The notes under the pieces: generated by a model
Database searches by the model: none
What the model was told of the DNA's origin: nothing
What the model saw: the letters and a program-made list of their open reading frames with translations, nothing else
From: Thermoanaerobaculia bacterium
GTDB taxonomy: Bacteria > Acidobacteriota > Thermoanaerobaculia > Multivoradales > JAGPDF01
Direction: 5' to 3'
DNA: 64,000 nucleotides
Assembly: GCA_963788175.1 (NCBI GenBank)
Contig: CAWBFZ010000006.1
Location: 55,221-119,220, forward strand
Made by a program: the position numbers and the translations under genes
Part shown: positions 12,424 to 34,921 of the stretch, in pieces
Layout: every line of letters starts with the position of its first letter
How positions within the stretch are numbered: position 1 is the first letter of the stretch

Positions 12424-12434
12424 CGGAGCGGATC

Positions 12435-13788
12435 TTAGACCGAACGGGCCGCCGTTGCGGGATCGTTGCCCGCTTCGTTGCCGAACAGGACCCCGATGCT
12501 GCGCAGGAAGGGGAACGGTGGCTCGCCGCCGATCAGGACGAAGACGTAGTCGTTGTCGAGCGTGATCTCGCCCTCGGCAGTGCGGAGCCGCACCTGATCG
12601 CGACGGATCTCCAGAACCTCGGACCCGAGGAGCGGGCGGATCTTGCCGCGTTTGACGAGCTTGTCCAGAGTCTCCAGGTTCTTCGCCTTGACGCGGTCGA
12701 ATGCCTTGCCGCGATAGGAGAGGGTCAACTGGTTGCCGGCCTGCCGGGCGAGGCCCATGGCGGCCTCGATCGCGCTGTCGCCGCCGCCGACGCAGATGAT
12801 CTTCTTGCCGCGGTACTCCTCGGCGTCGCGCACCTGGTACATCACCTTCGGCAGCTGCCTCGCCGGGAACCCCGAGCTTGCGTGGCGTGCCGCGGCGGCC
12901 GAGCGCCAGCAGCACGCGGCGGGCGCGCCAGGCACCGTTGACGGTGAGGATGTGGAAGAGCCCGCCCTCCGGGATCACCTGCAGCACCTTCTGGCCGAAG
13001 AGGACCTCGAGCCGGTGCTTCTCCAGCAGGCCGCGGAAGAGCTCGAGCAGTTCCTCCTTGCTGTACTCCTGCTTGCGCAGCGGGCCGTAGAGCGGCAGAA
13101 CGACCTCTTCGGTATGGGTGAGCTTGCGGCGCGGGAAGTTGTAGATCGTTCCGCCGAGATCGCTCTGTTGTTCGAAGACGGCGTAGCGCAGGCCGCTCTC
13201 GACCGCGGTGAGCGCGGCGGCGAGACCGGCCGGGCCGGCGCCGAGGATGGCGACGTCGAGCAGCTCCGGGTCCTGGCGGACGACTCCGGCGAGGTCCGCG
13301 GCGATGGCGTGCACCGTTTCCCTGCCCTGGCGCACCGCGTTGCGGATCAGGGCGAGGCCGGCGAGCTCGCCGGCCACGTAGACGCCCGGCACGTTGGTCT
13401 CGCGTCGCTCGGTCATCCACGGCACGTCGGCGCGGCCGCGCAGGTCGCCGAGCGCGATCTCGATCGCCTGCACCGGGCAGGCCTTGGCGCAGGCGGCGAT
13501 GCCGACGCAGCGGCTCCCCTGGACGGCGACCGCCAGTCCGCCGACGATGCCCAGGACCTTCTCCGGACAGGCCGCGACGCAACCGCCGCAGCCGATGCAG
13601 ACGGCGGGGTCGATGTAGGGGAAGGCACCCATCGGCTGTTGGGGACCGTGGAGCAGCGCGGCGCCGGCGCGCTCGCGATCGCGCCGATTGCGGCGCCGGA
13701 AGGAGATCAGGTAGCCGAGCACGATCAGCGCCACGACGGCGAGGGCCGACGCCCAGATCAGAGTCCCGGTGTGCAGTACGGAGGGCAT
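12435..13788 (-). CDS. Membrane-anchored ferredoxin (two FeS motifs) fused to a TrxB-like FAD/NAD(P) oxidoreductase; one frameshift near 12857
   Basis: TM helix followed by RRRNRRDRER; CIGCGGCVAACP and CVGIAACAKACP; GAGPAG and VGGGDSA Rossmann motifs; no TrxR CxxC. Confidence 0.82.
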
Positions 13789-13790
13789 CG

Positions 13791-15690
13791 TCACAGCGGC
13801 AGGACGGCCGACTTGTGGCAGTCGGCGCAGGCACTGCCGACCGGCTTGAGGCGGGCGACCTCCTTGCCGCCGATGCGCTCCCGGAAGTGGCAGCCGACAC
13901 AGGCGACGGCGCGGTGCGCGCCCTCGAGGCGGTAGGTCGAGTCGCGATTGTGGTCGAAGCGTGAGGGGCCCCAGCTCGAGTCGCCGTGGCACTTCTCGCA
14001 GCCGGTGCCGACCTGCCCGAGATGCGGATCGGCGTGGCAGCCAGAGCACAGGAGCGGCGCCCCGGCGAGGCGGACCTCGCGCGGCGTCGCCCAGGCGCGC
14101 GCCGACGGCGGCGGCAGCACGACGGCGGCCGACGTCGGCAGCGGACGGCCCCCGGCCGGGGTCGGCAAAGGAAAGGCGCGGCCGACCTCGACTGGGGCAG
14201 GCCGCCGGCGGCCGGGCTCTTGTGGCAGCCGAGGCAGGCGACCTTGAGATGCAATCCGGCGACCGGGAACTTCGTCACGCTGTGGTCGAAGCGGATCGCG
14301 CGCCAGTCGGTGAGCGCATGACAGGCGAGGCAGCCCTCCTTCCCGAGGTACTTCTCGGTGTCGCCGGCGTGCGGATCGCGATGGCAGTCCGCGCAGTCCG
14401 ACTTCGGGAAACGGAACTGGGTGATGGCCGGCGGTCCGGTCGGCCTTGGGCGCGGGCGCGACCCGGACGAGAGCGATGCCGGCGCGTTCGAGCTCGGCGG
14501 GCGGCAGGGTGCGATGGCAGGTGGCGCACTTCGTCGTGCGATGGCTCCCCAGCAGCGGGTAGGAGGTGGCCTCGTGCAGCGCGACGGTGTAGGTCGAGGG
14601 GCGGAAACCGGAGGTCGTGTGGCACTCGCCGCACTCTCCGCCGCTCTTGCGCCGGGCGAGCTGGCCGGCGTGCGCGTCCGCGTGGCAGGAGGCGCAGCGC
14701 TCGAAGCCGGGAATCTGCCTCGGCTTGCCGGGCAGGTGGCAGGCGAGGCAGTCGGTCGCCTGGTGCTTGCCGGTGAGCGGATAGCGGGTGCGGGCGTGGT
14801 CGAAGTTGGCGCGCTGGATCCGCTTCCAGTCGTCGCTCGTGTGGCAGCTCTCGCACTTCGCCCCGAAGCGGCCCTGGTGCGGGTCCTTGTGGCAACCGGC
14901 ACAGGTGGTGGGCACGCCGCGATAGGCGACGTCCGGCGGGGCCGATCCGGCCTGCGGAGTGTCCGCAGAGCGTGGAAGATGCGGCGGGGCGGAAGTTGCG
15001 CCAGCCGGGACGGTCGGGTGGCAGCGCGCGCAGGCCACCTTGACGTGGGCGAGGGTGAGCGGGAACTTCGACTTGTCGTGGTCGAAGAGCTCGGCGGGCC
15101 GGAACTTCTTCAGCCCGTGACAGCTCGCGCAGTCGGCGGTGCCGAACTGGCCGCGATGGGCGTCCTTGTGGCAGGAGGCGCAGCGCGTCTCGAGTCCGAG
15201 GAAGGTGCGCTCGAGCTCGACGCCCTTGGCGAGAAGCGGCGCCGGGTCGGCGATCGACTGCTTGCGATGGCAGGCGCGGCACTCGAGCGGCGCGTGCGCG
15301 CCCTGCAGGGTGTAGCCGGCGAGCGCGTGGTCGAAGGCCTTCTGGCCGGCCTTGCCCCAGTAGACCAGCTCGAAGTCGCGGCCCTGATGCTCGATGTGGC
15401 AGTGCTCGCAGTCGCCGTGGTCCGGCCGGGAGTGGAGGCCTCGCCGGCGTCGATGCGCTGCTGGATCGGCGTGTGGCAGGTGAGGCAGAGCCCCCGGTCG
15501 ACGCCGCGCTTGGCGCTGTGGCAGTTGAGGCATCCGTCGCTGCCGTCGAACTTCGCATGCGCGTGGCTCAACTCGCCGGGCGAGATCTGGCCGCGCGCCG
15601 CCGGCGGCGAGAGCAGCGCGCATCCCAACCCGGCGAGGATCCCGGCGGCGGCCAGGATGCGCCCCGATGCCCGGCCGCAGCTCAGTGTCC
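13791..15690 (-). CDS. Exported multiheme cytochrome c, 20 CXXCH; frameshifted near 15440 and 14440
   Basis: Signal-like ILAAAGILAGLGCALLSPPAARG; 20 CXXCH counted across frames; FDH..FPL.G.H and CH.D.H.G repeats; exact start unclear. Confidence 0.85.
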
Positions 15691-16553
15691 GATCCCCGCG
15701 TAACCGGTCATCCAGGCGACGCCGATGTGCACCACCATGAAGAGATACATGACGACGGCGAACGGCTTGTGGAAGACGTGCCAGTAGTGGAAGAGCTCGC
15801 GCACTCTCTGCCACAGCAGGATGCGGCGGTGGAGGCGCACCTTGTGGGTCGCCAGGAGCTCGAACCGGCGGCGCAGACGCCGATCGACCGCCGGGAAATC
15901 GCGCCGGAAACGGCGCAGCCGGAAGCGCAGCGCCAGGGCGTCGTAGGGAAATCGGAGGACCATGCCGAAGAGGGACTGTTTGGCGCCGGTACCGATCTCC
16001 GCCACGGCATCGAGTTGCCGGATCGCATCGGCATCGAGGCCGACCTCGTCCATCAGCTGGCGGGCAAGCTCCTGGTCGAGCTTCTCGACCTCGGCCAGCG
16101 ACAGCTCGTCACCGGCGTTCGAGTGTGGAATCTGGCGGTACAGGTACCGCCCGGCGACGCCGCTCGAGGCGACCGCGACCATCGACCAGAAAGAGAGCGC
16201 GACCAGGCCCTGCACCTTGAAGGAGCTGTGGAGGAGGATGAAGAGAGGACCGCACAGGCCGAGCAGAATGTGAAAGTCGAGCCAGTCGCTGACCGGTCCC
16301 AGACGGCGCAGGAGGGCGAAGCGCTTGCGCACCGAGTAGAGCAGCATGACGATCATCATCGCCGCGCCGACGATGCCGAAGGCGAGGCCCCACGAGCCTC
16401 CCGGCTTGAGCTGCCAGTAGAGCGGGTGGCGCGGCCGTTCGGCGAGCGGCGTCAGGTAGTAGGGCAGTCCCTGCGAGCCGCGAACCAGGCGAGGCTGCCG
16501 AGAAACAGCACATAGAGGCCAACGAGCACGAGCCGCTGGGGGGCGACCTTCAC
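15682..16553 (-). CDS. Inner-membrane protein with paired TM histidines (ferric-reductase/cytochrome b-like); frameshift near 16470
   Basis: About 5 TM segments with WLDFHILLG, ILLHSSFK, HYWHVFHKPF and MVVHIG; GTG at 16553. Confidence 0.65.
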
Positions 16554-16554
16554 T

Positions 16555-17849
16555 TCACTTCGCTCCGCTCTCCAGGGTGATGGTGACCGGCGTGCCGGAG
16601 AAGCGCCTGCGACCGCGGCGGTCGAGATCGCCGGGCTCCTTGGTCGAGGCGTTGCCGTCGCCGTCGAGGCTGACCGAGAGGTTGCCCTTCGAGCGGCAGG
16701 GGCTGACCCATCATGCTGTCGTCGACGGAAAGGGTCAGCTCGAGCGGGAAGGTCGGATTCGAGATCCGCTTGACCGCGGCCGGCGGCCCCGGCGTGTCGC
16801 CGCGCAGGGCGACGAAGAGGGTCGCCCGACTGCCCGCCGCACCGCGCGGCGCGACCGTCCCCGGCGCGAGCTCGATGTGCAGGCGATAGGCGCCGCCGCC
16901 TGCGGCCGCCGCCGCGGGGGACTGGGCGGCAGCCGGAGGGGCCGCGCCGGCCATCGCGATGGCTCCGGCGCCGCCGGCGCCGCCGCCCGCCTCGACTTCC
17001 GCCAGCAGCTCCTCGATCGGCGGGAAGTTGCCGCCGGCCGCCGCCAGGCCCTTCTTCCAGGTCGCGATCGCCTGCGGCATCTGGCCGAGAGCGGCCTCCG
17101 CCTGGCCCTTCGCCAGCGAGGCCAGGAGGTGGTCGGGATGCTGCGCGAGGACGCCGTCCATGAGCTGCACGGTGAGCGGCCACTGGCCCATGGCCAGGCG
17201 CACCACGCCTTCGACGAAGAGGCCGTCCGGATCGTTGGGCGGCCTGCTTCTGCAGCTCTCTCGCCTGCTCGAAGGCCTCCATCAGGAGGTTGGCGTTGAG
17301 CAGCGCGACGGTGAGCTGGCGGCGCGCCTGGAGGTCCTGCGGCGCCGCCTGGACCTGCGCGCGAAACTGCTCGAGCTGCGCCGCGACTTCCGGGGTGAGC
17401 TCGGCGCTCTCGTCGTGGGCGGCTGCGGCGGCCTCGGGCGAGGCGGCGGGCGCGGCCGCGAGCCATTTGAGCCATCGGAGCCATCGGAGCCATCGGGGCC
17501 GTCGGAGCCATCTGCGCCGTCGGCGACATCGCAGCGGTACCCGCGCCCATCTCGTCCTTCGGTCGCGAGCCCACGGTGGCCCAGTAGATCGAGGCCGCCG
17601 ATGACGAGGCAGCTGGCGACTCCGAAGAGGAATCCGACCAGCCCCGACCGCCGTTCGGAGGTCGCCGGTCCGGCGGTGGTGCCCGGCCCAGCGGCCGAGA
17701 CAGCGTCCGGCGCGCCGGCACCAGATCCTTCGGAGGGCAGGCCTGTCGCGCTGCCCAGCGGGCTCTCGCTGCTTGCCCCGCAAAGCGAACCAGAGACCTG
17801 CGGCAAGGCCCACGGCGACGACGATCAGACCAGGAATCCAGACGTTCAT
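16555..17849 (-). CDS. ccmI: CcmI/CycH-like TPR cytochrome c maturation protein; several frameshifts
   Basis: N-terminal TM, TPR-like helices (PQDLQARRQLTVALL; PNDPDGLFVEG), C-terminal ATLFVALR...PPAAVKRI...FPLELTLSVDDSMM domain; follows ccmH with an ATGA overlap. Confidence 0.7.
17461..17530. repeat. 9-bp tandem repeat encoding Met-Ala-Pro repeats in ccmI
   Basis: GAGCCATCG x3 plus degenerate copies; minus strand reads MSPTAQMAPTAPMAPMAPMAQMA. Confidence 0.75.
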
Positions 17850-18352
17850 GACGGTTTCGAATCCTCCTGCGGGGTGGAAGTTGGGGGCGCCGGGCGCTGC
17901 GGCCGCAGGCGGAAGAAGATCATCAGCGCGCCGGCGGCGAACGCCAGCATCGGCATCAGCCAGACCATCCAGTTGAAGCCCTCCGCCTTGGGCTCGAGGC
18001 GGATGAACTCGCCGTAGGAGCGCTCGAACGCGGCGATCACCTGGTCCTCGGAGTAGCCGAGGGAGAGCATGCGACGGACCTCGGCCTTGAGGTCGACCGC
18101 CGAGGAGGACGGCGAGTCGGCCACCGACAGGCCCTGGCAGACCGGGCAGCGCATCAGGGAGGAGACCTCCTCCGTGGCGCGGTCGAGCGCCGCGCCGGCG
18201 AGCGGCGGCCCGAGCGGCGCCGGTCCTGGCCCGGCGCGGCGGGCGCTCTGTGCGCTGACGGCAAGCGGCGTCAGAACGACCACCAGGGCAGCAGCAGCGA
18301 CGAGCGCCGTGAGGCACGCGCCGCGGCGCGACAGCTTCGGGAGAGAGTTCAC
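17846..18352 (-). CDS. ccmH: Cytochrome c biogenesis protein CcmH
   Basis: MRCPVCQGLSVADS, YGEFIRLEP, WMVWLMP. Confidence 0.92.
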   Translation of the reverse strand: MNSLPKLSRRGACLTALVAAAALVVVLTPLAVSAQSARRAGPGPAPLGPPLAGAALDRATEEVSSLMRCPVCQGLSVADSPSSSAVDLKAEVRRMLSLGYSEDQVIAAFERSYGEFIRLEPKAEGFNWMVWLMPMLAFAAGALMIFFRLRPQRPAPPTSTPQEDSKPS

Positions 18353-18863
18353 AGCATCGCCTCCAGCGAGCGGGTCAGACCGTCGAAGCTCACCATGCCG
18401 GTGACCTTCTCGTGGACGATGCCCCGGGCGTCGATGAGGAAGGTCTCGGGCACGCCGTAGACGCCGAACCGAATGGCGGTGCGCGAGTCGGGGTCGACCA
18501 GCGCCGGGCCCCAGACTGCCGCGCTGGCGTTCGTAGGCGCGGATCGCCTCGCGGCGTGTCCTGGTAGATCACGCTCACGAACCGCGCCCGCCCGGCGTAG
18601 CGGCGCGCCAGGGCGGCGAAGATCGGATTCTCCGCGGCGCACGGCTGGCACCAGGTCGCCCAGAAGTTGACCACCACCGGCTGCCCGCGCAGGTCCGCGA
18701 GCCGGAGCGTCCGTCCCTCGAGGTCGCTCAGAGCGAACTCCGGCGCCGGCTGGCCGATGAGCGGCGAGATCACCTCGCGCGGGTCGTGGCGCAGGCCCGA
18801 GGCCAGCATGACGAGCAGCGGGGCGACCAGGATCAGGCCGATGAGCAGGACCTTGCGGTTCAT
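18349..18863 (-). CDS. ccmG: CcmG/DsbE thiol-disulfide oxidoreductase; frameshift near 18550
   Basis: VVNFWATWCQPC, GVYGVPETFLID, N-terminal TM. Confidence 0.9.
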
Positions 18864-20853
18864 GCCGCGGCCTCCGCGCCGGGGACCGGATCGGGCTTGC
18901 CGCCCCGAGAAGCGCAGGCCGGCGGGCAGCAGACAGATCGCCGTGCCGACGACGATGATGAAGACGCCGATCCAGATCCAGACCACGGCCGGCGTGACGA
19001 TGGCGCGCAGGCCGATGCTGCCGTCGGTGCCGACGTTCATCAGCGAGAGGTAGAGGTCGTGGCCGAGCGCCGTGCGGACGGCCGGCGTGCCGATCGGCTC
19101 CATGCGGGTGTCGTAGCGGTTGAGCGCCGGCTCGAGCGTGCCGGCGTCCTTGCCGTTGCGCTCGATCCGCATCACGGGCGCGATCCGAGACCCGATGCGG
19201 CTCCGGGCGCGCGTCCACCTTCTCGAAGGTGAGGTTGTAGCCCGCGACCGTCCATCGACTCGCCGGGTCGCATCGTCGCCTCGTGCGCGACCTGATAGGA
19301 CGACGAGACGGCGATGGCGACGAAGGTCACGACGACGCCCAGATGGGCGAGGTAGGCGCCGTAGCGGCGCGCTCCCGCGTCGCACGGCTTCGCCGACCGC
19401 CTCGGTCCACGGCTCGTCCTCGCGGCGCCGGCGGGTGAGGCGCAGTCCCTGGTCGAAGTTGACCCAGACGGCGTAGCCGGCGAGGGCGCCGGTGACGAGG
19501 ACGCCCCAGCTGCGGCCGCCGGCGGCGAGCGTCACGAGGAGGCCGGCGATCGCCGCCGGAATCGGAAAGAGCAGGGCGCGGCGGACGTTGCGGTTGTCGG
19601 CCCGCCCCCAGGGGAGCGCCGGACCGATGCCGATGAGCAGCAGCAGGCCGAGGCTGATCGGAATCGCCATGCGGTTGAAGTAGGGCTCGCCGACGCTGAC
19701 CTTGACGCCGCGCACCATCTCGGCGGCGATCGGGAAGAGCGTGCCGACCAGCACCGTGAACATGAAGACGAGCAGCAGCAGGTTGTTGATCAGGAAGGCG
19801 CCTTCGCGGGTCCACAGCGTCTCGCGGTCGGGATCCGAGGCGAGGGTGTCCATGCGCATGGCGAGCACGACGACGGAGGCCACGAGGCAGAAGCCGAGGA
19901 AGGCGAGGAAGGCCGGGCCGATCGGCGTCTGGGTGAAGGAGTGCACCGAGTTGACGACTCCCGAGCGGGTGAGGAAGGTGCCGAGGATCGTCAGCAGGAA
20001 GGTCACGACGACGAGCACGACCGTCCAGGCCCGCAGCGTCCCCTTGCGCTGCAGCACCAGCGCCGAGTGCACGGCGGCGATGGCGGTGAGCCAGGGGAGG
20101 AAGGAGGCGTTCTCCACCGGATCCCAGGCCCAGTAGCCGCCCCAGCCGAGCACTTCGTAGGACCACCAGCCGCCGAGCATCACGCCCATCGTCAGGAAGC
20201 CGGTCGGCACGAGCAGCCAGGTGCGCAGCGAGCGGATCCAGTCGCGGTCGAGCCGGCCGGCGAAGAGCGCGGCCATGGCGATCGCGAACGGCACGCTCAT
20301 GCCGACGTAGCCGAGATAGAGCATCGGCGGATGGATGATCATCAGCGGATGGTTCTGCAGCAGCGGATTCGGCCCCGGGCCGTCGGTCGGCACCGGCAGC
20401 GGCGTCGGCGCGAACGGATCGGCCGGCCCGGCGATCAGGAAGGTGAAGAAGATGCCGACCACGAAGAGCGTCCCGAGCATGTAGCCCAACTGGTCGGGAG
20501 CGCTCCGGCGCAGGTGGAAGGCCGACCCGGCGGTGAAGACCCCGAGGATCGAGGCCCCAGAAGAGGATCGACCCGTCGAGCGACGACCAGAGCGAGACGA
20601 TGGTGATGTGCAGGGGGGTCGCGAGCGACCCGACCTGCGCCACGTAGGAGACCGAGAAGTCGTGGCGAACGAGGGCGAAGATCATCAGGCCGGTGGCGAG
20701 CGCCATCATGACGGCATAGACGTAGGCGAGGCGCCGCGCGCGCGCGATCCCGCCGGCGGCGCGCCGCTGGGCGGCAGCGAAGCTCATCACCGCGCCGGTC
20801 GTCGCGAGGAGCAGCGCCGCCAGGACGACGGAGCGGCCGAGGATGGAGATCAT
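18860..20853 (-). CDS. ccmF: Heme lyase CcmF; several frameshifts
   Basis: NPLLQNHPLMIIHPPMLYLGY, WSYEVLGWGGYWAWDPVENAS, FLTRSGVVNSVHSF, VSVGEPYFN. Confidence 0.93.
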
Positions 20854-21349
20854 CGGGGATCTCCGGATGCGGAGGGCTCGAGCGTCTCGGCGAGCTCTTT
20901 GACCGTTCGAGAGTCGCCCTTGCCGGGCGCCTGGTACTCGTTGTCGTGCTTGATCATCAGGCGGTCGGTGCGCGAACGTTCCGTCGGCCTGCAGCGCGCC
21001 TTCGACGACCACGCCGATCCCTTCGCGGAACATCGCCGGCGGCACCGCCGTGCGTCGAGACGGCGACCGTCTCCGTGCCGTCGGTCATCTTGAACTGGAG
21101 ACCGAGGCCGCCCTCGCCGGTCTCGATCGAGCCCGGCGCGACCAGGCCGCCGAGGCGGATGGTGGCGCCTTCGGCCTTGCCGCCGTGGGCGCGCAGCTCG
21201 GTCGGGCTCCAGTAGTAGACCAGGCTCTTGCCGAGGCCGCCCAGGGCGAGAAATCCGAAGGTCCCGGCGGCGATGAGGATGGCGACGAGGGCGAGCAGCC
21301 GGTGCCGCCGGACTTCGGCGCGCGCCTTGTTCGAGGATTCGATCGTCAT
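20850..21349 (-). CDS. ccmE: Heme chaperone CcmE; frameshifted
   Basis: LVYYWSPTE, IRLGGLV, PPAMFREGIGVVVEG, MIKHDNEY heme-binding H-x3-Y. Confidence 0.9.
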
Positions 21350-21483
21350 GACTTGCCCTCCTTCTGATGCTGCTGTCGCGTGCGCCGGATCAGGCTCCAG
21401 GCGTAGAGGACCAGGCCGACGGCGGTGATGCTGTAGGCGGCGATGACGAAGTTCCATCCGCCGAGGATGACTCCCTCAGGCAT
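21346..21483 (-). CDS. ccmD: Heme exporter protein CcmD (45 aa, not in the ORF track)
   Basis: MPEGVILGGWNFVIAAYSITAVGLVLYAWSLIRRTRQQHQKEGKS between ccmC and ccmE, overlapping both; single TM plus basic tail. Confidence 0.82.
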   Translation of the reverse strand: MPEGVILGGWNFVIAAYSITAVGLVLYAWSLIRRTRQQHQKEGKS

Positions 21484-22174
21484 GACGCACCTCGATTCTC
21501 TCGATTCGGTCGGGAATGGCGGTTTCGCTGCTGCGCCGCCGGGCGAGCTCGAGGCGGGCGCGGCGGACGATGAACCAGATGGCGGCGAACATCAGGGCGA
21601 AAGCGTTCAGCCGCAGCGGCAGCACCATAGCTGGATCTACGGTGGCGGGCGAGGACTGGATCTGATGCAGGCTCCGCCACCAGCGCACGCAGAAATAGAC
21701 CAGCGGCACGTCGACGTAGGCGACGATCGCGGCCACCGCCGTCAGGCTCGCCCGGCGCTCCGAGCCGACGGCGAACGAGCGCAGCGAGAGCACGCCGATG
21801 AAGAGCAGGAGCAGGACCAGGGAGGTCGTGAGGCGCACGTCCCAGTCCCACCAGACGCCCCAGGTGGCGCGGCCCCAGAGTGAGCCCTGGATGAGGAGCA
21901 GGCCGTTCAGGACCACGCCGGCCTCGGCGGCGCCGACGAGGGTCGCGTCCCAGCGCTCCCGCCCGGTCCACAGCGAGCCGATCGCCGCGATGAAGGCGCA
22001 GGTGAAGCAGAGCAGCGCGTTCCAGGCGGTCGGCACGTGCACGTACATGATGCGCTGGACCTCGCCCATATGGCGTTCGGCCGGGGCCACGAAGAGACCG
22101 ATGTAGCAGCCGACGATGAACAGCAGGACGCCGGCGAGTCCCACCCAGTGCTCTTTGGCAAAGCGACGGTTCAC
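21476..22174 (-). CDS. ccmC: Heme exporter protein CcmC
   Basis: RIMYVHVPTAW, WGRATWGVWWDWDVRLT, WWRSLHQ. Confidence 0.95.
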   Translation of the reverse strand: MNRRFAKEHWVGLAGVLLFIVGCYIGLFVAPAERHMGEVQRIMYVHVPTAWNALLCFTCAFIAAIGSLWTGRERWDATLVGAAEAGVVLNGLLLIQGSLWGRATWGVWWDWDVRLTTSLVLLLLFIGVLSLRSFAVGSERRASLTAVAAIVAYVDVPLVYFCVRWWRSLHQIQSSPATVDPAMVLPLRLNAFALMFAAIWFIVRRARLELARRRSSETAIPDRIERIEVRHA

Positions 22175-22177
22175 GGT

Positions 22178-22864
22178 TCAGCCCTCCTCGATGACGAACG
22201 GAAAGAGGATCCCTCCCAGGGACCAGTAGATGAGGTCGAAACAGAGCAGCAGCAGCGCCCACGACCGCATCTGCCCCATCGGGTCGCCGGTGAGGACGAG
22301 CGCCAGCGCCTTGCAGGAGGCCATCAGGACCGGCACCACGAGCGGGAAGAGCAGCAGCGGCAGCAGGACGTCGCGGCTGCGCAGCTGGGCGGTCATGGCG
22401 GCGTAGAGCGTTCCTGGCGCCGAGAGCCCGGCCGCGGCGAGGCCCCAGATGGTGAAGAAGCTCACCACGTTCGCCGGCTGGAGCTCGACGCCGTAGAGCA
22501 CGACGCCGAACAGCGACAGCCCGGGCGCCAGCATCGCGAGCGAAAGCGTATTGGCGATCGCTTTGCTGTAGAAGACGGCGCCCGGCCGGACCGGCAGCAG
22601 GAGGATGCCCTCGAGCGCCCGGCGTTCGTGCTCGATGCGAAAGCTCTCGGCGAGCGCCAGCGTCGAGGAGAGCAGCAGGGCGATGACCAGAAACCCGGCC
22701 GCCCCGGCGGTGAGGGCCTTCGAGTCCGGGCCGACGGCGATCGAAAACACCACCAGCGAGAGCAGCCCGAAGACGCCGACCGCGACGAGGCGCGCCTTCG
22801 CCCGCCATTCGAGCCGGAGGTCCTTGGCGAGAAGTGTCAGGGTCTGGCTGCGCAGCTCGCTCAC
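22178..22864 (-). CDS. ccmB: Heme exporter protein CcmB
   Basis: LLAKDLRLEWR, LLPLLLFPLVVPVL; about 6 TM; GTG at 22864. Confidence 0.92.
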   Translation of the reverse strand: MSELRSQTLTLLAKDLRLEWRAKARLVAVGVFGLLSLVVFSIAVGPDSKALTAGAAGFLVIALLLSSTLALAESFRIEHERRALEGILLLPVRPGAVFYSKAIANTLSLAMLAPGLSLFGVVLYGVELQPANVVSFFTIWGLAAAGLSAPGTLYAAMTAQLRSRDVLLPLLLFPLVVPVLMASCKALALVLTGDPMGQMRSWALLLLCFDLIYWSLGGILFPFVIEEG

Positions 22865-23580
22865 GAGGCCCTCGCCAGCACGTTCGGGAGGTCGCGGGCG
22901 GCGCCCTGCCAGGTCATCTGGCCGCGGGCGAGGAGCACGGCGCGGTCGGCGATCGGCGCCGCGCGCTCGAGGTTGTGCGAGGCGATGACCACGGTCTTGC
23001 CCGCCTTGCGGTCGGCGGCGATCCAGTCGGTCACCAGCTCCTGGCCGGCGGTGTCGAGGGCGGCGAACGGCTCGTCGAGCAGCACCAGATGCGGAGTCCT
23101 CGAGGCGCACCCGGGCGAAGGTCAGACGCTTCTGCATGCCGGCGGAGAAGCCGCTCACGACGGTGTCGCTCTCGGGCTCGAGGCCGACCTCCGCCGAGGC
23201 GCGCGCGCAGGTCCGCGTTCGGCCGTCGAGCGGCCGAGGAGGCGCGCCCAGAGGCGCACCGTCTCGAGGGCGGTGAGAGGCTCGTAGAGATAGGAGGCAT
23301 GCGAGAGCAGCGAGACATTTCGGCGCCAACCGAAGGGGTCGGATGCGAGGTTCTTGCCAAACAGCTCGAGCTCGCCGGCGGTGGGTCGCAGGAGGCCCGC
23401 GAGCAGGCGCAGAAAGGTCGTCTTGCCCGAGCCGTTGGGGCCGGCGATGAGCAGCACCTCGCCCGGCGCGGCGGTGAGGTCGAGGTGGGCGAGCGCCCAC
23501 TTCTGCCCGTATCTGCGGGACAGATCGCGGGCACGGAACGCCGCCGGCGGCGTTTCGGACGGGCGATTGGCGACCTTCAA
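22861..23580 (-). CDS. ccmA: Heme ABC exporter ATPase CcmA; frameshifts near 23210 and 23095
   Basis: GPNGSGKTT, FSAGMQKR, LLDEPF, VIASH. Confidence 0.9.
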
Positions 23581-23719
23581 GGACGCTTCGATTCCGCGCG
23601 GGCCGGGCGACGGGGCAGCAGGGCAGGTCTCGACCGCATAAGACTGCGTACGATACCGCAGCGCGGGGGGGCCCGGCCACCCTGCGGCCCGGCGGCAGGG
23701 TGGGGATGCTGGCGACCAC

Positions 23720-26094
23720 CTAGAGCCGGTAGCCGAGCTGGAGGAAGAGCCGCTCGCCTTCGAGGTCGTCGCCGGTGGCCGATTCGAGCTCGCCGAGCAG
23801 GTAGAAGCGCCGGCCGAGCTGGAGCGTGCCGGAAAGGCGCAGCCACTGGTTCTCGCGCACCTCGCCCGTGGCGAGGAGCTCGGTGCTGGAGATGCCGAAG
23901 GTGAGCTCGACGTCGTGGCCGCTGCGGAAGTACTTCTGGACCCGCAGGCCGGCGCGGAAGCCGCTCGAGGTGTCGCCGTCGAAACCCGAGTAGTCGCCGC
24001 CGACGAGCATGTTCCAGCCGAAGACGTTGCTGTGGTAGACGTTGGCGTTGTAGGCGAGGCTGCGGTCGGGGTTGCCCTGCTTCCAGCGCTGGCCGACCGA
24101 GAAGTTGGCGCGCACCGTCTTCGCCGAGCCGAGGTAGGCCGTCACCCGATAGCCCTCGCGCAGCGCGTTGTCGAACAGCTCTTCGGGCGTGAAGCGGTCG
24201 TCAAGGGTGAAGATCTGGCGCGACTGGTCGTAGCTCACGCCGAGGCGCACCGCCTTGGAGACGCTGTAGCTGCCGGAGAACAGGACGTTGCTCAGCTGAC
24301 TGTTGTTGGCGGCCGGATTGTCGCGCCAGTTGTGGCCGAGGTCGAACTCGGCGCGCTCGTAGAGCGACCAGCGGCTGCCGGAGCCCTGCCGGCCGTAGAA
24401 CGACAGGTACTCCCGGTTGGTATCGCCCCCGAGGTAGTCGCCGATCGCCTCGAAGCAGGTACTCGGCGTAGAAGGGCTTCCCGGGCGACTGGTCGAGCCA
24501 GTGCACGAAGGCGCCGTAGGCGCGGCCCGGGCTGGCGAAGTTGATCTGGTCGCCGTTCGAGCGCGAGCCGTAGAACGCTCCGAGACTGAAGCGCCGGGTG
24601 GCGTGGAACTCGCCGACTCCGCCGTCGAGATAGTCGAAGCCGACGAGCGGCCCGGAGATCAGCCGGCCGACCTGGTAGGTGAAGCGTGCCTCGGGCGGCT
24701 CGTAGGAGAGGGTCGCTTCGTAGAGGCGGTCGTTGTCGCGCGACTCCGACCTGCCGGAGGAGAGCTGGATCTGCTCGCGGCTGGCGGTGCCGCGCAGCCG
24801 GAAGTCGAACTTGCTGCCGCCGATGTGGCCGGCGTAGATGTTGACCAGAGCCGACTCCTGGTTGAAGTCGCGCCCGGCCGGACCGCCATCCTTGAAGCCC
24901 TGGTAACGCAGCGCCAGCGACCCGGAATAGTCGGTGTGTTCGGCGGGGTTCCAGCCCGGCGGCTTGCCCTTCTGGCCCGGCACGACCGGCGCGCCGGTCG
25001 GTGCGCCGGCGCTGCCGGCACCGGCCGGGAGCGCGGCCGAGGGCGGCAGCGGACCCGGGATGACGAGATCACCGACGGCGATCGTCTCCGTCGCCGCGAC
25101 GATCTTGCACGAGGCCGAGTGGCTGGCGATGAAGGCGATCTCGAGCTCGGCGATCTCGGAGGTCGCGCCGGTCGCGGCGTCGGTGCGCCGCACCTTGACG
25201 CGCTGGCCGACCGCCAGGCCCGGCGCTGCGGCCGGCGTCGAGGAAGACCTCTTCGGCGAGCACCTGGCGCACCCGGATCGGTTGCGCCACGGCGGGCTCG
25301 CCCGGTACTGGGCGGCGGGCGTTGCCGGCAGCGGTCGGGGTTGCGGCAATCGCCGGCTCCGTCACCGGCGCCGGCGGCGGCGGCGGGACTTCGAGCCGCC
25401 GAACGCGGTCTCCCTGGGTGATCGGGCGCACTTCGCGATCGATCCGGCAGGTCGCCGAGTGCTCGCCGACCAGCAGGACCTCGAGCTCGCCGATGACCAG
25501 GCTGCCGCGCTCCACCACGAGGCGATCGCCGACCGCCACCGGCTGCGAGGAGACCAGCGAGATGTCGACCGCACCGCGCAGCACGCGCTGCACGATCATC
25601 GTCTGGTTGCTCGGGTGCTCGCCCGCGTCGTCGGGCCTGGAGGCGACTGGGTGGCGGCGGGCAGAGCGCCTGGCGACGGCGATCGGAGCGGCCGGAGCGC
25701 GCAGCGGTCGCCGCGGCCGAGGGCTTTGCCCGCCGCGCGCGGGCGCACCAGATCGCCGCCGGCGATCGCGCGCCGTCATGCGCTCGATCCGGCACGAAGC
25801 CTCGTGGTTCGCCGACGATGGTGACCTCGAGATCGGCGAGCTTGACGCCGTCGCGCTCCACGGACGAGGCGATCGCCGACCGCGAGTCGCCGCGTGCCCG
25901 GTACGTCGATGTCGACCCGCCCGGCGACGACGCGCGCGACGGTCATCGGCGGCGCGCTGTCGGGGGACTGCCGCGGCGGAAGCCAAGCCGGATGCGAACA
26001 GAGGACCAGAGCGAGGGTCGCCAGGATCGAGAATCGGAGTCGGACGCCGGCCGCTCTGCGCAGAGGCGGCCGAGAAATTCATGGAATCAGTCAT
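23720..26094 (-). CDS. Outer-membrane beta-barrel (porin-like) with three tandem N-terminal beta-domains; frameshifted
   Basis: Signal-like FSILATLALVLCSHPAW; three similar ~70-aa domains; Pro/Ala linkers; long amphipathic beta region ending LFLQLGYRL (aromatic beta-signal). Confidence 0.75.
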
Positions 26095-26129
26095 CAGGTT
26101 CAGTGGTCTCTCTTGTCGTTCGCTGCGGC

Positions 26130-29100
26130 CTAGGCCGACCCGCGCGGGTGACACTGGTAGCAGGCGTGGCTCTCGTAGAGGTAGCCGCCGACCTCGTTGT
26201 GGTCGTTGTTGGTCTCGCTCTGGCTGTGTTCGTGACAGAGGATGCACTCGAAGTTGTTGAAGTTCCCGGCGCTCACGTGGCACGAGGCGCAGGGGAGCTG
26301 GTGGCGGCCCGAAGCGATCGGGAAGCAGGTCGTTGTGATTGAAGGTCGACGGCTCCCAGGCGGTCGTGCTGTGGCAGCTCTCGCAGGTGGTCGGGAAGCC
26401 GGCGCTCTGGTGGTCGGGGTCGTTGGTGCCGTTGTAGTCGCTCTGATGGCAGGCGAAGCACAGGGTGGGCGTGCCGGAGTAGCCGCCGGAATGGCAGTCG
26501 AGGCAGGCCGCGCCGGCGTGCGCGCCGGTGAGCGGGAAACCGGTGGCGCTGTGGTTGAAGCTCGCCGGCTGCCAGGCGGTGTCGGAGTGGCAGTCCTGGC
26601 AGGTGTGCGGGAAGCCGGTGTGACTCGGGTTGTTGGCGCCGTTGAAGTCGGACTGATGACAGGAGAAGCAGGCCGACGGCGTGCCCGGCGTAGCCGCCGC
26701 TGTGACAGTCGAGACAGGACGCGGCCAGGTGGGCGCCGTGCAGCGGGAAGCCGGTGGCGCTGTGATTGAAGCTCGCCGGCTGCCAGGCGGAGACGCCGTG
26801 GCAGTCCTGGCAGCTGTGCGGGAAGCCGGTGTGGCTCGGGTTGTTGGCGCCGTTGAAGTCGGACTGGTGACAGGAGAAGCAGTCGGTCGGCGTTCCGGCG
26901 TAGCCGCCGCTGTGGCAGTCGAGGCAGGAGGCGGCCTGGTGCGCGCCGTTGAGCGGGAAGCCGGTCGCGTTGTGGTTGAAGCTCGCCGGCTGCCAGGCGG
27001 CGACGCCGTGGCAGTCCTGGCAGGTGTGCGGGAAGCCGGTGTGACTCGGGTTGTTGGCGCCGTTGTAGTCGGACTGGTGACACGAGAAGCAGTCGGACGG
27101 CGTTCCGGCATAGCCGTTCTGGTGGCAGGCGGTGCAGGAAGCGCCGAGCGGTGGGCGCCGTTGAGCGGGAAGCCGGTGGCGTTGTGGTCGAAGCTCGCCG
27201 GCTGCCAGGCGGTGACGCCGTGGCAGTCCTGACAGCTGTGCGGGAAGCCGGCTGTGGCTCGGATTGTTGGCGCCGGTGTAGTCGGTCTGATGACAGGAGA
27301 AGCAGTCGGAGGGCGTCCCGGCGTAGCCGTTCTGGTGACAGTGAGGTGCAGGAGGCCGAGCGATGGGCGCCGTTCAACTGGAAGCCGGTGGCGTTGTGGT
27401 CGAAGCTCGCCGGCTGCCAGGCGGAGACGCCGTGGCAGTCCTGGCAGGAGTGCGGGAAGCCGCTGTGGCTCGGATTGCTGGCGCCGGTGAAGTCGGTCTG
27501 ATGGCAGGAGAAGCAGTCGGAGGGCGTGCCGGCGTAGCCGTTGCGGTGGCAGGAGGTGCAGGAGGCCGAGCGATGGGCGCCGTTCAGCTGGAAGCCGGTG
27601 GAGTTGTGGTCGAAGTTGGCCGGCTGCCAGGCGGAGACGCCGTGGCAGTCCTGGCAGGATGTGCGGGAAGCCGCTGTGGCTCGGATTGCTGGCGCCGGTG
27701 AAGTCGGTCTGATGACAGGAGAAGCAGTCGGAGGGCGTGCCGGCGTAGCCGTTGCGGTGACAGGAGGTGCAGGAGGCCGAGCGATGGGCGCCGTTCAGCG
27801 GGAAGCCGGTGGAGTTGTGGTCGAAGTTGGCCGGCTGCCAGGCGGAGACGCCGTGGCAGTCCTGGCAGGTGTTCGGGAAACCGGTGTGGCTCGGATTGCT
27901 GGCGCCGGTGAAGTCGGTCTGATGGCAGGAGAAGCAGTCCGAGGGCGTGCCGGCGTAGCCGTTGCGGTGACAGGAGGTGCAGGAGGCCGAGCGATGGGCG
28001 CCGTTCAGCTGGAAGCCGGTGGAGTTGTGGTCGAAGTTGGCCGGCTGCCAGGCGGAGACGCCGTGGCAGTCCTGGCAGGTGTTCGGGAAGCCGCTGTGGC
28101 TCGGATTGCTGGCGCCGGTGAAGTCGGTCTGATGGCAGGAGAAGCAGTCCGAGGGCGTGCCGGCGTAGCCGTTGCGATGGCAGGAGGTGCAGGAGGCCGA
28201 GCGGTGGGCGCCGTTCAGCGGGAAGTCGGTGGAGTTGTGATCGAAGGTGGCCGGCTGCCAGGCGGAGACGCCGTGGCAGTCCTGGCAGCTGTTGGGGAAG
28301 CCGCTGTGGCTCGGATTGCTGGCGCCGGTGAAGTCGGTCTGGTGGCAGGAGAAGCAGTCCGAGGGCGTGCCGGCGTAGCCCGATGCGATGACAGGAGGTG
28401 CAGGAGGCCGAGCGATGGGCGCCGTTCAACTGGAAGCCGGTCGCGTTGTGGTCGAAGCTGGCCGGCTGCCAGGCGGAGACGCCGTGGCAGTCCTGGCAGG
28501 AGTTGGGGAAGCCGCTGTGGCTCGGGTTGCTGGCGCCGGTGAAGTCGCTCTGATGACAGGAGAAGCACTCACTGGGCGTTCCGGCGTAGCCCGTGCGATG
28601 GCAGGAGGTGCAGGAGGCCGAGCGATGGGCGCCGTTCAACTGGAAGCCGGTCGCGTTGTGGTCGAAGGTCGCCGGCTGCCAGGCGGAGACGCCGTGGCAG
28701 TCCTGGCAGGAGTTGGGGAAGCCGCTGTGACTCGGGTTGCTGGCGCCGGTGAAGTCGCTCTGATGGCAGGAGAAGCAGTCGGTGGGCGTGCCGGCGTAGC
28801 CGTTGCGGTGGCAGCTCGCGCAGTCGGTGGAGCGGTGGGCACCGTTCAACTGGAAGCCGGTGGAGTTGTGGTCGAAGAGCGCCGGCTGCCAGGCGGTGAC
28901 GCCGTGGCACTCGCGACAGGTGATGGGGAAGCCGGCATGCACCGGGTTGCGGGCGCTGGTGAAGTCGGTCTGGTGGCAGGAGAAGCACTCGATCGGCGTG
29001 CCGGCGTAGCCGGTGCGATGGCAGGTCGTGCAATCGACCGTGCGGTGGGCGCCGAGGAGCTGGAAGCCGGTCTGGTTGTGATCGAAGGTCGCCGGCTGCC

Positions 29101-29744
29101 AGGCAGAGACGCCGTGGCAGTCCTGGCAAGTCGTGGCGAACCCGGCATGCACGGGGTTGCGCGCCCTGGTGAAGTCCTTCTGGTGACAGGTAAAGCAGTC
29201 GGTCGGGGTCGCGGTGTAGCCGTTGCGGTGACAGGAGACGCAGTCGACCGAGCGATGGGCGCCGTTGAGCTGGAAGGTGGTCTGATTGTGGTCGAAGGTC
29301 GCCGGTTGCCAGGCTGCACACGCCGTGACAGTTCTTGCACGCGGTCGGGAACCCGGCGTGGCTCGGGCGGGTGGCGCGGATGAACGCCGGCTCGTGACAG
29401 GCGAAGCAGTCGGCCTTGGCCTTGGCCGTCGGCGAAGTCGAGGGTCGCGTGGCAGGACTTGCAGGTGGCGTCGGCGTGCGCGCCGGCGAGGTCGAAGCCG
29501 GTCGTCGCGTGTTTCCACGGCAGCGGCGACCGGAGCGGCGTCCAGCCCTCCATCGAATGGCATTCGGCGCACGCGGTCGCCGAGCGCGCCGTGCGGGCTC
29601 GCCGAACCCCCTTGCGCGCGCCAGCGGCGCCGGGACGCCGAGCGCAGCGAAGGCAGCCAGGATGGGCACCAGCCAAAGGCCGGCTTGCACGAAGTGCCGA
29701 GGTCCTGCGCGATGGCGAAAGCCGCACGCGATGCATCCGGGCAT
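26130..29744 (-). CDS. Giant repeat multiheme cytochrome c, about 49 CXXCH; several frameshifts
   Basis: Signal peptide, 4 N-terminal hemes, 14 units of 70 aa x 3 CXXCH, 3-heme C-terminal cap ending CYQCHPRGSA. Confidence 0.88.
26356..29308. repeat. Coding tandem repeat, ~210-bp unit x14
   Basis: GCCAGGC anchor recurs at 26571, 26782, 26992, 27204, 27416, 27626, 27837, 28047, 28257, 28468, 28678, 28888, 29098 and 29308 (variant near 26356). Confidence 0.92.
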
Positions 29745-29851
29745 CCTCTCGCATACGCGATGAGCTTCCTGTGAACACGACCATCCTCCAGCTGTTGAGA
29801 ATTGCCAGAGTTATGAACCAGAGATGAACGAGAGCGCGAGCTGCCGCGCGC

Positions 29852-31985
29852 TCACTCACGGCCGCGCGGGTGACACTGGTAGCAGGCCCGACTCTCGTAG
29901 ACGTAGCCGCCGACCCCCCGGTGCTCGGGATTGGTCTCACCCTGGCTGTGCTCGTGACAGAGGATGCACTCGAAGACGTTGTAGTTTCCCGCCGCCACGT
30001 GACAGGAAGAGCAGGGGAGCTGATGGCGCCCTGAAGCGATCGGGAAAGAGCTCTCGTGATTGAACGTCGCCGGCGTCCAGGCGTTCGTGCCGTGGCAGTC
30101 GGCGCAACTGGTCCCGAATCCGGCGCTGGCGTGATTGGGATTGCGGGTCCCGTTGTAGTCGCTCTGATGGCAGGCGAAGCAGTCGGACGGTGTTCCGGAG
30201 TAGCCGTTGCGGTGGCAGGTGGTGCAGGCGAGCGAGCGGTGCGCGCCGGTGAGCTGGAAGCCGGTCGTGTTGTGGTCGAAGCTCGCGGGCTGCCAGGCGG
30301 TGACGCTGTGGCAGTTCTGGCAGGTCGTCGGGAAGCCGGAGTGGCTCGGGTTCGAAGCCGCCGTTGTAGTCGCTCTGATGGCAGGACAGACAGTCGGATG
30401 GCGTGCCGGCGTAGCCGTTGCGGTGACAGGTGGTGCAGGCGACCGAGCGGTGCGCTCCGTTCAGCTGGAAGCCGGTCGTGTTGTGGTCGAAGGTCGCGGG
30501 CTGCCAGGCGGTCGCGCTGTGACAGTTCTGGCAGGTGGTCGGGAAGCCGGCGTGGCTCGGGTTGCGGGCGCCGGTGTAGTCGCTCTGATGGCAGGCGAAA
30601 CAGTCGGCGGCGGTGCCGGCATAGCCGTTGCGGTGGCAGGAGGTGCAGGCGACCGAGCGATGCGCACCGCTCAACTGGAAACCGGTCGCGTTGTGGTCGA
30701 AGGTCGCGGGCTGCCAGGCGGTCGAGCTGTGGCAGCTCTGGCAGGTGGTCGGGAAGCCGGAATGGCTCGGATTGCGGGCACCGTTGTAAGCGGCTTGATG
30801 ACAGGCGAAACAGTCCGCCGGGGTGCCGGCGTAGCCGTTCGCATGGCAGGAGGTGCAGGGGGCCGAGCGGTGCGCGCCGGCGAGCTGGAAGCCGGTCGCG
30901 TCGTGGTTGAAGGTCGCCGGCTGCCAGGCGGTGACGCTGTGGCAGTCCTGGCAGGTGTTGGGGAAACCGCTGTGGCGCGGGTTGCTGGCGCCGTTGTAGT
31001 CGCTCTGGTGGCAGGAGAAGCAGTCCGTGGGAGTGCCGGCGTAGCCCGTGCGGTGACAGTTGACGCAGCTGGTGGAGCGATGTGCCCCGCTGAGCGGGAA
31101 GCCCGAGCTGTCGTGATCGAAGAGCGCCGGTTGCCAGGCGGTGAAGCTGTGGCATTCGCGGCAGGTGACGGGGAAGCCGGCGTGCACCGGGTTGCGGGCG
31201 CTGGTGAAGTCGGTCTGGTGGCACGACAGGCACTCGACCGGCGTGCCGGCGTAGCCGGTGCGGTGACAGAGCGTGCACTCGACCGTGCGGTGGGCGCCGA
31301 GGAGCTGGAATCCGGTCTGGTTGTGGTCGAAGACCGCCGGCGACCAGGCGGAGACGCCGTGACAGTCCGCACAGCTGGTGGAGAAGCCGGCGTGGGAAGG
31401 ATTCCGGGCGCTCGCGAAGTCCTTCTGATGGCAGGTGAAGCACTCGGTTGGCGTCGCCGTATAGCCGGCGCGATGACAGGCGACGCAGTCGACGGTGCGA
31501 TGGGCGCCGTTCAACTGGAAGGTGGTTCGGTTGTGATCGAAGGTGGCCGGCTGCCAGGCGGCGACGCCGTGGCAGGACTTGCAGGTGGTCGGGAAGCCCG
31601 CGTGGGCGGGTCGGGTGGCGCGGGTGAAGGCCGGCTCGTGGCAGGCGTAGCAGTCGGTCTTGCCCTTTTCTCTGGCGAAGTCGAGCGTCGCATGGCAACT
31701 CTTGCAGGCGATGGCGGAGTGTCCGCCGGCGAGATCGAAGCCGGTTTCCGAGTGCCTGTAGGGCAGCGGCGACTTGAGCGGAGACCAGCCCTCGGTGGAG
31801 TGGCAGTCGGTGCATTCGTTCTTGAGGGCGCCGTGCGGATTCGCCGAGCGCGCCTGCCCCGCGACCGGAGCCGCGCGCAAGAGAAGGAGGAAGGCGAGTC
31901 CTGCACCGTAGGTGGCGAGTCGCAGCGGCTGGGTCGCAACGAGCCACGGCGGCATTCGCGACCGCAAGGTCTCCAAAGAAGCCAT
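29852..31985 (-). CDS. Repeat multiheme cytochrome c, 28 CXXCH; frameshift near 30355
   Basis: Signal peptide, 4 N-terminal hemes, 7 units x 3 CXXCH, 3-heme cap ending CYQCHPRGRE; start may be 31985 or 31955. Confidence 0.9.
30075..31555. repeat. Coding tandem repeat, ~210-bp unit x7
   Basis: AWQP/AWSP/AWTP-ATFDH junctions roughly every 210 bp. Confidence 0.88.
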
Positions 31986-34896: not shown

Positions 34897-34921
34897 GGTC
34901 GAAAGGTCTCCGGCTCGAAGC

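Follow-up and report, generated by a model that had tools for sequence, protein, structure and literature searches.

To our knowledge, all characterised Gram-negative routes of extracellular electron transfer (EET), namely Mtr, Pcc/Ext and Mto/Pio, exchange electrons with quinones via proteins of the CymA/NapC, ImcH or CbcL type. A further conduit, termed PCC3, was predicted in 2017 and consists of a porin, an "extracellular" multiheme cytochrome (MHC), a "periplasmic" MHC as well as a membrane protein termed IMP (He, Barco, Emerson and Roden, 2017, PMC5566968). The extracellular MHC is built from repeats and has a median of 34 and up to 85 hemes, the periplasmic MHC has a median of 21, and the IMP is a protein of ~300 aa with five transmembrane (TM) helices, WX3HX13H motifs on TM3 and TM5 and SGXXG on TM4; its resemblance to FRD/NOX proteins was remarked, yet a quinone-active cytochrome b was proposed (PMC5566968). 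Later papers, including the Gallionellaceae pangenome (PMC9900912), describe the same four genes, functionally unverified. Here we report a cluster in a 64,000-nt stretch from a Thermoanaerobaculia bacterium (contig C6:55221-119220, the whole of which is called the window), which runs on the minus strand from 31985 to 12435 and holds two giant cytochromes (cyt1, cyt2), an outer-membrane barrel, ccmABCDEFGHI, an IMP, a 20-heme cytochrome (cyt20) and an iron-sulfur (FeS) flavoprotein oxidoreductase, with 97 CXXCH altogether. We consider it very probable that the cluster encodes a real trans-envelope conduit, and we give roughly even weight to the fuller reading of a PCC3-type envelope-spanning conduit with an added cytoplasmic input module. 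The initial annotation of this DNA had spoken of an undescribed architecture, which turned out to be only partly right because four of the parts fit PCC3. Judged from its sequence features, the cluster would be a five-gene variant of PCC3 in which the flavoprotein, the embedded maturation genes, the N-terminal domains of the barrel and the host phyla are new; no description of the five-gene form with flavoprotein was found in the literature searched. The fit to PCC3, whose type cluster is that of Sideroxydans lithotrophicus ES-1 / Leptothrix, was judged by the published feature definitions.

Conservation of the module and its parts

We scanned 185,579 species genomes and obtained 393 IMP-encoding loci, the best 80 of which were inspected for hosts and belong to Thermoanaerobaculia, Vicinamibacteria, Holophagales, Polyangiaceae, "Multivoradales", Calditrichota, Zixibacteria and Ignavibacteria. 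Among the 39 loci with at least 8-9 kb of flank on both sides, 38 hold the IMP, cyt20 (20-23 hemes), a cytochrome of 7+3n hemes, the barrel and the flavoprotein together, and the core is kept through at least four gene orders. This co-conserved module has the layout of a conduit leading from the cytoplasm to the exterior, as the initial annotation had suggested. That annotation had also proposed a search for the neighbourhood across Acidobacteriota, Myxococcota and related genomes, and the module was indeed found in at least five phyla (Acidobacteriota, Myxococcota, Ignavibacteria, Calditrichota and Zixibacteria). The order MHC-barrel-(ccm/ccmI)-IMP-cyt20-oxidoreductase is present in the window's lineage, in genome G027 and in a "Deltaproteobacteria" metagenome-assembled genome (MAG); IMP-cyt20-MHC-barrel-oxidoreductase in Ignavibacteria, Zixibacteria, Calditrichaceae and Holophagales; and MHC-barrel-oxidoreductase-X-IMP-cyt20 in Polyangiaceae and Multivoradales. 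A complete module in the order ccsA-IMP-oxidoreductase-23-heme-40-heme-barrel, with a putative barrel of 538 aa, lies on plasmid pEMTOL02 of the cultured Bacteroidota Emticicia oligotrophica DSM 17448 (NC_018749.1 78197-89995, genes EMTOL_RS21085-RS21110), and this location hints at horizontal mobility of the module.

The assembly that contains the window comprises 4.46 Mb in 20 contigs at 70% GC, with a completeness of 88.7%. The cluster has no uninterrupted open reading frame (ORF) in it, every gene being frameshifted, mostly by +1 insertions, and genes were found by GC3 frame plots and by tblastn against intact orthologues, with translated genes of G004 placed onto the window. The reference genomes were G001, G003, G007, G009, G010, G011 and G013 from the same genus (barrel identity 89-96%), G004 (75%) and G027 from another family (65%). 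The order and coordinates that the initial annotation had read from the letters were reproduced by tblastn of the intact G004 orthologues. Read in all six frames, the window has 100 CXXCH, every one of them on the minus strand and none on the plus strand, and 96-97 of the 100 fall within 13829-31814, matching the earlier figure of about 97. The overlapping or tight genes described earlier have their counterpart in the intact G004, with 4-nt overlaps at the ccmI/IMP, IMP/cyt20 and cyt20/oxidoreductase junctions. The genes of the cluster are as follows.

cyt1: 29852..31985, minus strand; secreted c7-repeat multiheme cytochrome, 28 CXXCH (7 + 3x7); PF14522 7e-29; frameshift near 30400
cyt2: 26130..29744, minus strand; tandem cyt1 paralogue, 49 CXXCH (7 + 3x14); many frameshifts
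barrel: 23720..26094, minus strand; outer-membrane protein, at least two frameshifts (~25217, ~24455); from tblastn, AF2 of orthologue P0019 and Foldseek
ccmA: 22861..23690 (start approximate), minus strand; ABC ATPase, tblastn to G004 CcmA at 66% identity; +1 insertions at 23215, 23195 and 23089
ccmB: 22178..22864, minus strand; PF03379 2.3e-26; 91% identity to G004
ccmC: 21476..22174, minus strand; PF01578 4.7e-25; tblastn to G004
ccmD: 21346..21483, minus strand; 45-aa single-TM protein MPEGVILGGWNF...; ORF, conserved in G004
ccmE: 20850..21385, minus strand; PF03100; two frameshifts (~21050, ~20971)
ccmF: 18870..20853, minus strand; PF16327 and PF01578; frameshifts at ~20550, 19376, 19250 and 19175
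ccmG: 18349..18863, minus strand; thioredoxin-like, AhpC-TSA and Redoxin matches
ccmH: 17846..18316, minus strand; PF03918 1.6e-28
ccmI: 16555..17849, minus strand; ccmI/CycH-like TPR + Ig_CycH protein, PF23892 and TPR matches
IMP: 15682..16553, minus strand; 289-aa 5-TM membrane protein, predicted di-heme b cytochrome; 2-nt insertion at ~16479
cyt20: 13791..15685, minus strand; 20-heme c3/c7-type cytochrome with signal peptide; at least three frameshifts
oxidoreductase (flavoprotein): 12435..13782, minus strand; TM + Fer4 + Pyr_redox_3; +1 insertion at 12857

The giant cytochromes are built from a unit of 210 nt, that is 70 aa with three hemes of the PF14522 c7 type, repeated 7.2 times at 30141-31657 in cyt1 and 14.2 times at 26417-29413 (88% matches) in cyt2, which lies directly upstream of the barrel gene. 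Their orthologues in G004 have 716 aa with 28 hemes and 1203 aa with 49 hemes. Such a repeat-rich giant MHC, with ~23-25 aa per heme and a predicted surface location, resembles that of PCC3. In hand-checked loci the heme number of the barrel-adjacent cytochrome follows the series 7+3n (10, 22, 25, 28, 31, 40 and 49), and homologous N- and C-terminal caps are kept from 10-heme to 58-heme orthologues while the number of triheme units varies. An automatic count adds 16, 19, 34, 37, 46 and 58 hemes, but upstream of the barrel it sometimes took the 20/23-heme gene or a truncated ORF, and we rely on the hand-checked loci. Relatives sequenced by short reads show lower heme totals (50 and 64), which may be due to collapsed repeats. 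This length-variable cytochrome provides a natural series of single-chain heme wires. A 518-aa ATG ORF at L016:5723-7279 (P0001), which lacks any CXXCH, was rejected as cyt1 of G004 because it is an artefact read out of frame; the actual gene spans 5851-8001.

As in PCC3, the barrel gene adjoins a multiheme cytochrome gene (cyt2, then barrel), and the order MHC-then-barrel is constant in all lineages inspected. The barrel protein has a signal peptide, three small beta domains on Pro/Ala-rich linkers, a barrel of ~22 strands and the C-terminal end LQLGYRL. An AF2 model of the 765-aa orthologue P0019 (pLDDT 75.8) shows the three beta domains, disordered linkers and a ~22-strand pore without plug, with PapC/FimD usher pores and OprD/Occ/AlgE barrels as its best Foldseek matches (E~1e-8), all of them generic large-barrel matches with TM-score <0.5. 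The initial annotation had asked beforehand if the barrel might be a TonB receptor, and neither a TonB receptor nor MtrB occurs among the top 50 Foldseek matches of the model. No Pfam family matches the barrel at E<=1 except for one spurious match at 0.28, and no NCBIfam family does at E<=0.1; the barrel family itself has 40 matches at E<=1e-5, all "hypothetical" or nameless, some with FlgT_C matches in the N-terminal domains. The published PCC3 porins were predicted with up to 42 TM segments, in contrast to the ~22 strands here combined with one to three N-terminal beta domains, the number of which differs by lineage. Each of these domains keeps an H-x-A-(S/T)-C motif (P0019 residues 21-88, 116-183 and 247-320; window ~26030-25100), and across 28 sequences neither C166 nor C303 varies. 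For the cytochromes, these domains may serve as places of docking or as redox-active sites.

The IMP of the window, at 289 aa, also resembles that of PCC3, with W90-x3-H94-x13-H108 on TM3, S130-G-x-x-G134 on TM4 and W257-x3-H261-x13-H275 on TM5. Six His (H42, H94, H108, H258, H261 and H275) are invariant in 30 diverse members, as are W90, S130, G131, G134 and W257. In the AF2 model (pLDDT 84.7), which gives the helix pattern, the membrane part consists of five long helices, and TM4 and TM5 are separated by a helical insert of ~110 aa that is rich in Arg and would be cytoplasmic by the positive-inside rule. On TM3 as on TM5, the paired His are predicted to lie close to opposite faces of the membrane, a classic arrangement where two b hemes are stacked across the bilayer, and we infer that the IMP binds heme b as a di-heme b cytochrome. 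Among the 30 members, sub-threshold but consistent Pfam matches were obtained to DUF4405 (28), Ferric_reduct (19) and Ni_hydr_CYTB (11); the best E-value for DUF4405 is 1.2e-5, yet below the cut-off, and PF01794 scores 17 bits against a cut-off of 28. For DUF4405 proteins, binding of heme b has been shown by experiment (PMC11334425). The IMP belongs to a large family, with 1665 matches in a word-indexed search and 4002 clusters at 50% identity (E<=1e-3) among 1.84 billion representatives, and the names among the matches listed carry no functional annotation, nearly all being "hypothetical protein" besides one mislabelled NUDIX and one "cytochrome b561". The cyt20 gene always comes directly after the IMP gene in the loci scored, and its product has 20 hemes in 48 of them and 23 in another 15, comparable to the ~21-heme periplasmic MHC encoded with the IMP in PCC3. 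From its sequence we predict that cyt20 is a periplasm-spanning cable.

Proposed electron input and direction of flow

The fifth constant gene encodes a flavoprotein with a short N-terminus, one TM helix, the sequence RRRNRR, a 7-Cys ferredoxin domain and a TrxR-type FAD/NAD(P)H domain, and since RRRNRR comes right after the TM helix the body of the protein is predicted to be cytoplasmic. Its FeS motifs are CxxCxxCxxxCP followed by CxxIxxCxxxCP (window ~13480-13600). The second motif reads Cxx[H/I/V]xxCxxxCP in 57 of 58 orthologues, the variable residue being Ile in the clade of the window and His in 39 orthologues, and the canonical fourth Cys is missing in those 57, which suggests a second cluster of the 3Fe-4S type or with a His ligand. 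Clusters of these kinds sit at the heme-facing end of the SdhB and NiFe-hydrogenase chains. The flavin domain matches Pyr_redox_3 at 1e-42 (147 bits against a cut-off of 30), and the closest PDB matches are YpdA/Bdr (7a7b, 1.7e-30) and a TrxR-type ferredoxin-NADP reductase (3ab1, 2.8e-18). The NADPH domain has no TrxR redox-active CxxC, and the protein fits the class of TrxR-type ferredoxin-NADP reductases and YpdA, with a fold of two dinucleotide-binding domains and sites for FAD and NAD(P)H. YpdA itself was rejected, as the NCBIfam equivalog stays below cut-off (168 vs 340).

In the mechanism that we propose, NAD(P)H would reduce the FAD of the membrane-anchored TrxR/FNR-like flavoprotein, and electrons would pass via a [4Fe-4S] cluster and then the atypical second cluster (3Fe-4S-like here, with the His motif in most orthologues) onto the cytoplasmic-side b heme of the IMP and across the membrane to its periplasmic-side b heme. 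They would then enter the 20-heme cytochrome, the length of which would suffice to bridge the periplasm, and leave via the barrel-associated 7+3n-heme c7-repeat cytochrome (28 and 49 hemes here) to an acceptor outside, of which Fe(III)/Mn(IV) minerals, humics and a partner cell would be examples. We give about even odds to the electron input from flavoprotein to IMP.

The pairing of the two proteins, which the initial annotation had pointed out, held up well, being kept through at least four rearrangements and across phyla. A second line of evidence comes from Variovorax sp. WDL1 plasmid 3 (L105 7914-11600) and Bradyrhizobium sp. BTAi1 pBBta01 (L106 9270-11424), which carry a three-gene unit without barrel: a distant IMP-like gene for a 5-TM protein is translationally coupled to an FNR-type FAD/NAD/2Fe-2S reductase (FAD_binding_6/NAD_binding_1/Fer2) and a 7-heme cytochrome of the c3 family. 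By sequence, a non-homologous NAD(P)H reductase appears to stand there in the position of the flavoprotein, and this replacement makes our strongest case for a cytoplasmic NAD(P)H-flavin-FeS donor to these IMPs, comparable to the fused domain that feeds NOX/FRE. The initial annotation had also noted that no known quinone link is present; a quinol dehydrogenase of the NapC/NirT type (PF03264) is indeed missing from the cluster, and the matches in this genome lie elsewhere, near other multiheme clusters. One of these clusters (C8:241982-248800) adjoins a NapC/NirT-type match (PF03264, 4.2e-9) and is a possible second, quinol-linked EET route; another is at C7:218538-234600, and their pieces hold 23, 11, 13 and 10 CXXCH.

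The main rival explanation follows the published model, in which the IMP would be a quinol/quinone-reactive di-heme cytochrome b that couples the menaquinone pool with the cytochrome cable, and the flavoprotein a second, optional input or an accessory, for example one that keeps the chain reduced or serves maturation. He et al. proposed such coupling for IMPs with the same motifs (PMC5566968), the Ni_hydr_CYTB family matched by 11 of the 30 members is quinone-reactive, and the four-gene PCC3 of Gallionellaceae works, if at all, without a flavoprotein. We nevertheless think this explanation rather unlikely, because the flavoprotein is kept in all but one of the well-flanked loci despite rearrangements and across phyla, distant IMP-like genes have another kind of NAD(P)H reductase as their coupled partner, no motif of a quinone site was recognised in the IMP, and its long, conserved Arg-rich cytoplasmic insert would be left without a role. 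That said, several points besides those just named weigh against an NAD(P)H-fed conduit. The IMP model has no Foldseek match in the PDB at E<1 and the IMP profile finds nothing significant among PDB sequences, so that the likeness of the IMP to FRD/NOX proteins is drawn from the motifs and the sub-threshold HMM matches; the large helical insert may hide the core of the IMP from Foldseek. In many loci the flavoprotein gene adjoins the barrel gene and not the IMP gene, published PCC3 is functionally unverified and all members of the module are known from sequence only, and the window copy, frameshifted throughout, leaves function in this strain unproven.

As to direction, we favour outward flow, since the path from NAD(P)H (-320 mV) would then lead downhill and follow the membrane potential, and inward flow would go against both. 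The opposite scheme, put forward for PCC3 of iron oxidisers, is an uptake module that would take electrons from Fe(II), Mn(II), a cathode or a partner outside the cell and whose flavoprotein would reduce NAD(P)+; it draws on the reversibility of heme chains and on the presence and expression of PCC3 genes in Fe(II) oxidisers (PMC5566968 and later work). We consider it improbable: the hosts here are mostly heterotroph lineages of sediment or sludge, and the module has no energy-coupling subunit. Reduction of NAD(P)+ (about -320 mV) from donors of the Fe(II) type, against the membrane potential, is moreover strongly uphill.

Returning to the outward, NAD(P)H-fed reading, we propose with some reserve, and at somewhat less than even confidence, a widespread class of three-compartment NAD(P)H:extracellular-acceptor oxidoreductases that would not start at the quinone pool and in which a membrane-anchored NAD(P)H-FAD-FeS dehydrogenase docked on the IMP would form a "split NOX" and feed reducing equivalents of the cytoplasm straight into a hard-wired cable of c-hemes, adjustable in length (7+3n hemes) and reaching across periplasm and outer membrane; the same joint claim takes in hosts among Acidobacteriota, Ignavibacteria, Calditrichota, Zixibacteria and Myxococcota, and a Bacteroidota plasmid. 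If true, such a conduit would answer the energetic problem differently, letting fermentative or overflow metabolism dispose of electrons at the expense of membrane potential rather than adding to it, and it would change how EET capacity is read from the genomes of abundant uncultured phyla of soil, sludge and sediment. The plasmid-borne module of the cultured E. oligotrophica DSM 17448 is a possible bench model for this hypothesis.

Reading frames, maturation genes and surroundings

The CXXCH motifs of the cluster switch frames and stop-to-stop ORFs are short, and therefore this copy is full of frameshifts. Scored as frame-shifting relative to at least two same-genus relatives, 51 indels lie in 12435-26100 (3.7/kb), compared with four in each of the syntenic flanks (8970-12434 and 32100-38500; 0.6-1.2/kb), a density 3-6 times that of the flanks. 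This enrichment would suit a decaying pseudogene array, in which the frameshifts are real and the conduit is non-functional in this strain. We hold that explanation to be very improbable, as the remaining evidence points the other way. Clean +1 insertions outnumber clean -1 deletions by 23 to 4 in 12435-26100, an error-like bias; amino-acid identity to G004 (ccmB 91%, ccmC 86%, IMP 85%, oxidoreductase 84%) equals that of the intact relative G009, with no excess divergence; and frames are also broken outside the cluster, in flanking genes including the upstream MBL gene and in a CcsBA locus on C7. All seven same-genus relatives that carry the locus have open frames, as do G004 and G027. Because these relatives are intact, the frameshifts are probably insertion-biased consensus errors and not an old pseudogene array.

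The initial annotation credited the cluster with its own Ccm system, which is a fair description. System I is complete, with CcmB, C, E, F, G, H and I recognised by Pfam, CcmA by tblastn and CcmD by ORF and conservation, and the ccmB/C/E/F/H copies in the cluster are the only ones in the genome. The genome also has a CcsBA-like System II locus at C7:207831-210556 (minus strand), likewise frameshifted, with a CcsA-like piece (WGRYWGWDPKE) and a ResB/CcsB-like N-terminal piece, and the Ccm system of the cluster is therefore the second of two cytochrome c maturation systems. The embedded operon would supply heme attachment for the 97 c-hemes. A full ccm operon within the module was found only in the window's genus and in G004, and one other MAG has ccmABC nearby; a ccmI-like gene is spread more widely and accompanies the module in lineages whose cluster has no further ccm genes.

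The operon ends with a stand-alone toxin/immunity pair, which immediately follows the stop codon of the flavoprotein gene and occupies 11531-12423 on the minus strand: a small protein carrying a bacterial CdiA-CT RNase A domain (PF18431, 3.8e-24) and, after it, a CdiI_2 immunity protein (PF18593, 3.5e-7). Synteny of the 11531-12423 region is kept in same-genus relatives.

Relation to described systems

Besides the barrel architecture, four features set the cluster apart from PCC3 as published: the TM-anchored FeS/TrxR-like NAD(P)H flavoprotein as a constant fifth gene; an embedded ccm operon, or in other lineages a ccmI-like gene, or in Emticicia ccsA (System II) in place of ccm; two tandem giant cytochromes; and hosts among Acidobacteriota, FCB-group phyla and Myxococcota instead of Proteobacteria. 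Three other leads from the literature were set aside. PMC13013709 uses "PCC3" in another, unrelated sense, PMC13322032 is unrelated to the module, and the Pcc clusters of Geobacter (Shi et al., 2014) are a different system.

With MtrCAB, MtoAB and PioAB the module shares the principle of a multiheme cytochrome threaded in an outer-membrane barrel, and the minimal barrel-adjacent cytochrome of the Ignavibacteria and Holophagales loci, with 10 hemes, recalls MtrA. However, there is no family-level homology (scores with the DmsE/MtrA model TIGR03508 are 52 and 43 bits, where 192 is the cut-off), and the Mtr systems reach quinol via CymA/NapC-type proteins.

By its motifs, the inner-membrane side resembles the NOX/FRE enzymes and the FRD superfamily (MsrQ, DUF4405): two H-x13-H pairs on TM3 and TM5 would stack two b hemes across the membrane, with a cytoplasmic NAD(P)H-flavin donor and an acceptor on the outside. 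In NOX/FRE the dehydrogenase is a fused domain of the FNR fold, whereas here it is separate, membrane-anchored, of the TrxR fold and equipped with two predicted FeS clusters; the IMP has five TM helices and a large, predicted cytoplasmic insert, compared with six TM helices in FRD.

For the Hmc/Tmc transmembrane redox complexes of sulfate reducers, genes likewise stand together for a multiheme c3-type cytochrome in the periplasm, a cytochrome b in the membrane and an FeS protein in the cytoplasm, and weak HMM matches to HmcA/TmcA were found here. The Hmc/Tmc complexes differ in belonging to other protein families (with HdrD-like FeS subunits), in having neither barrel nor flavoprotein, and in a physiological flow that runs inward to sulfate reduction.

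In Geobacter, the gene neighbourhood of OmaB/OmbB/OmcB pairs a porin with cytochromes in a comparable way, but no homology to OmbB was found. The c7 polymers GSU1996 and GSU2210 of the same genus are linear heme wires of tandem triheme c7-type domains (PF14522) like the giant cytochromes described here, which differ by far more repeats per chain (7 and 14 units) and by their conserved caps.

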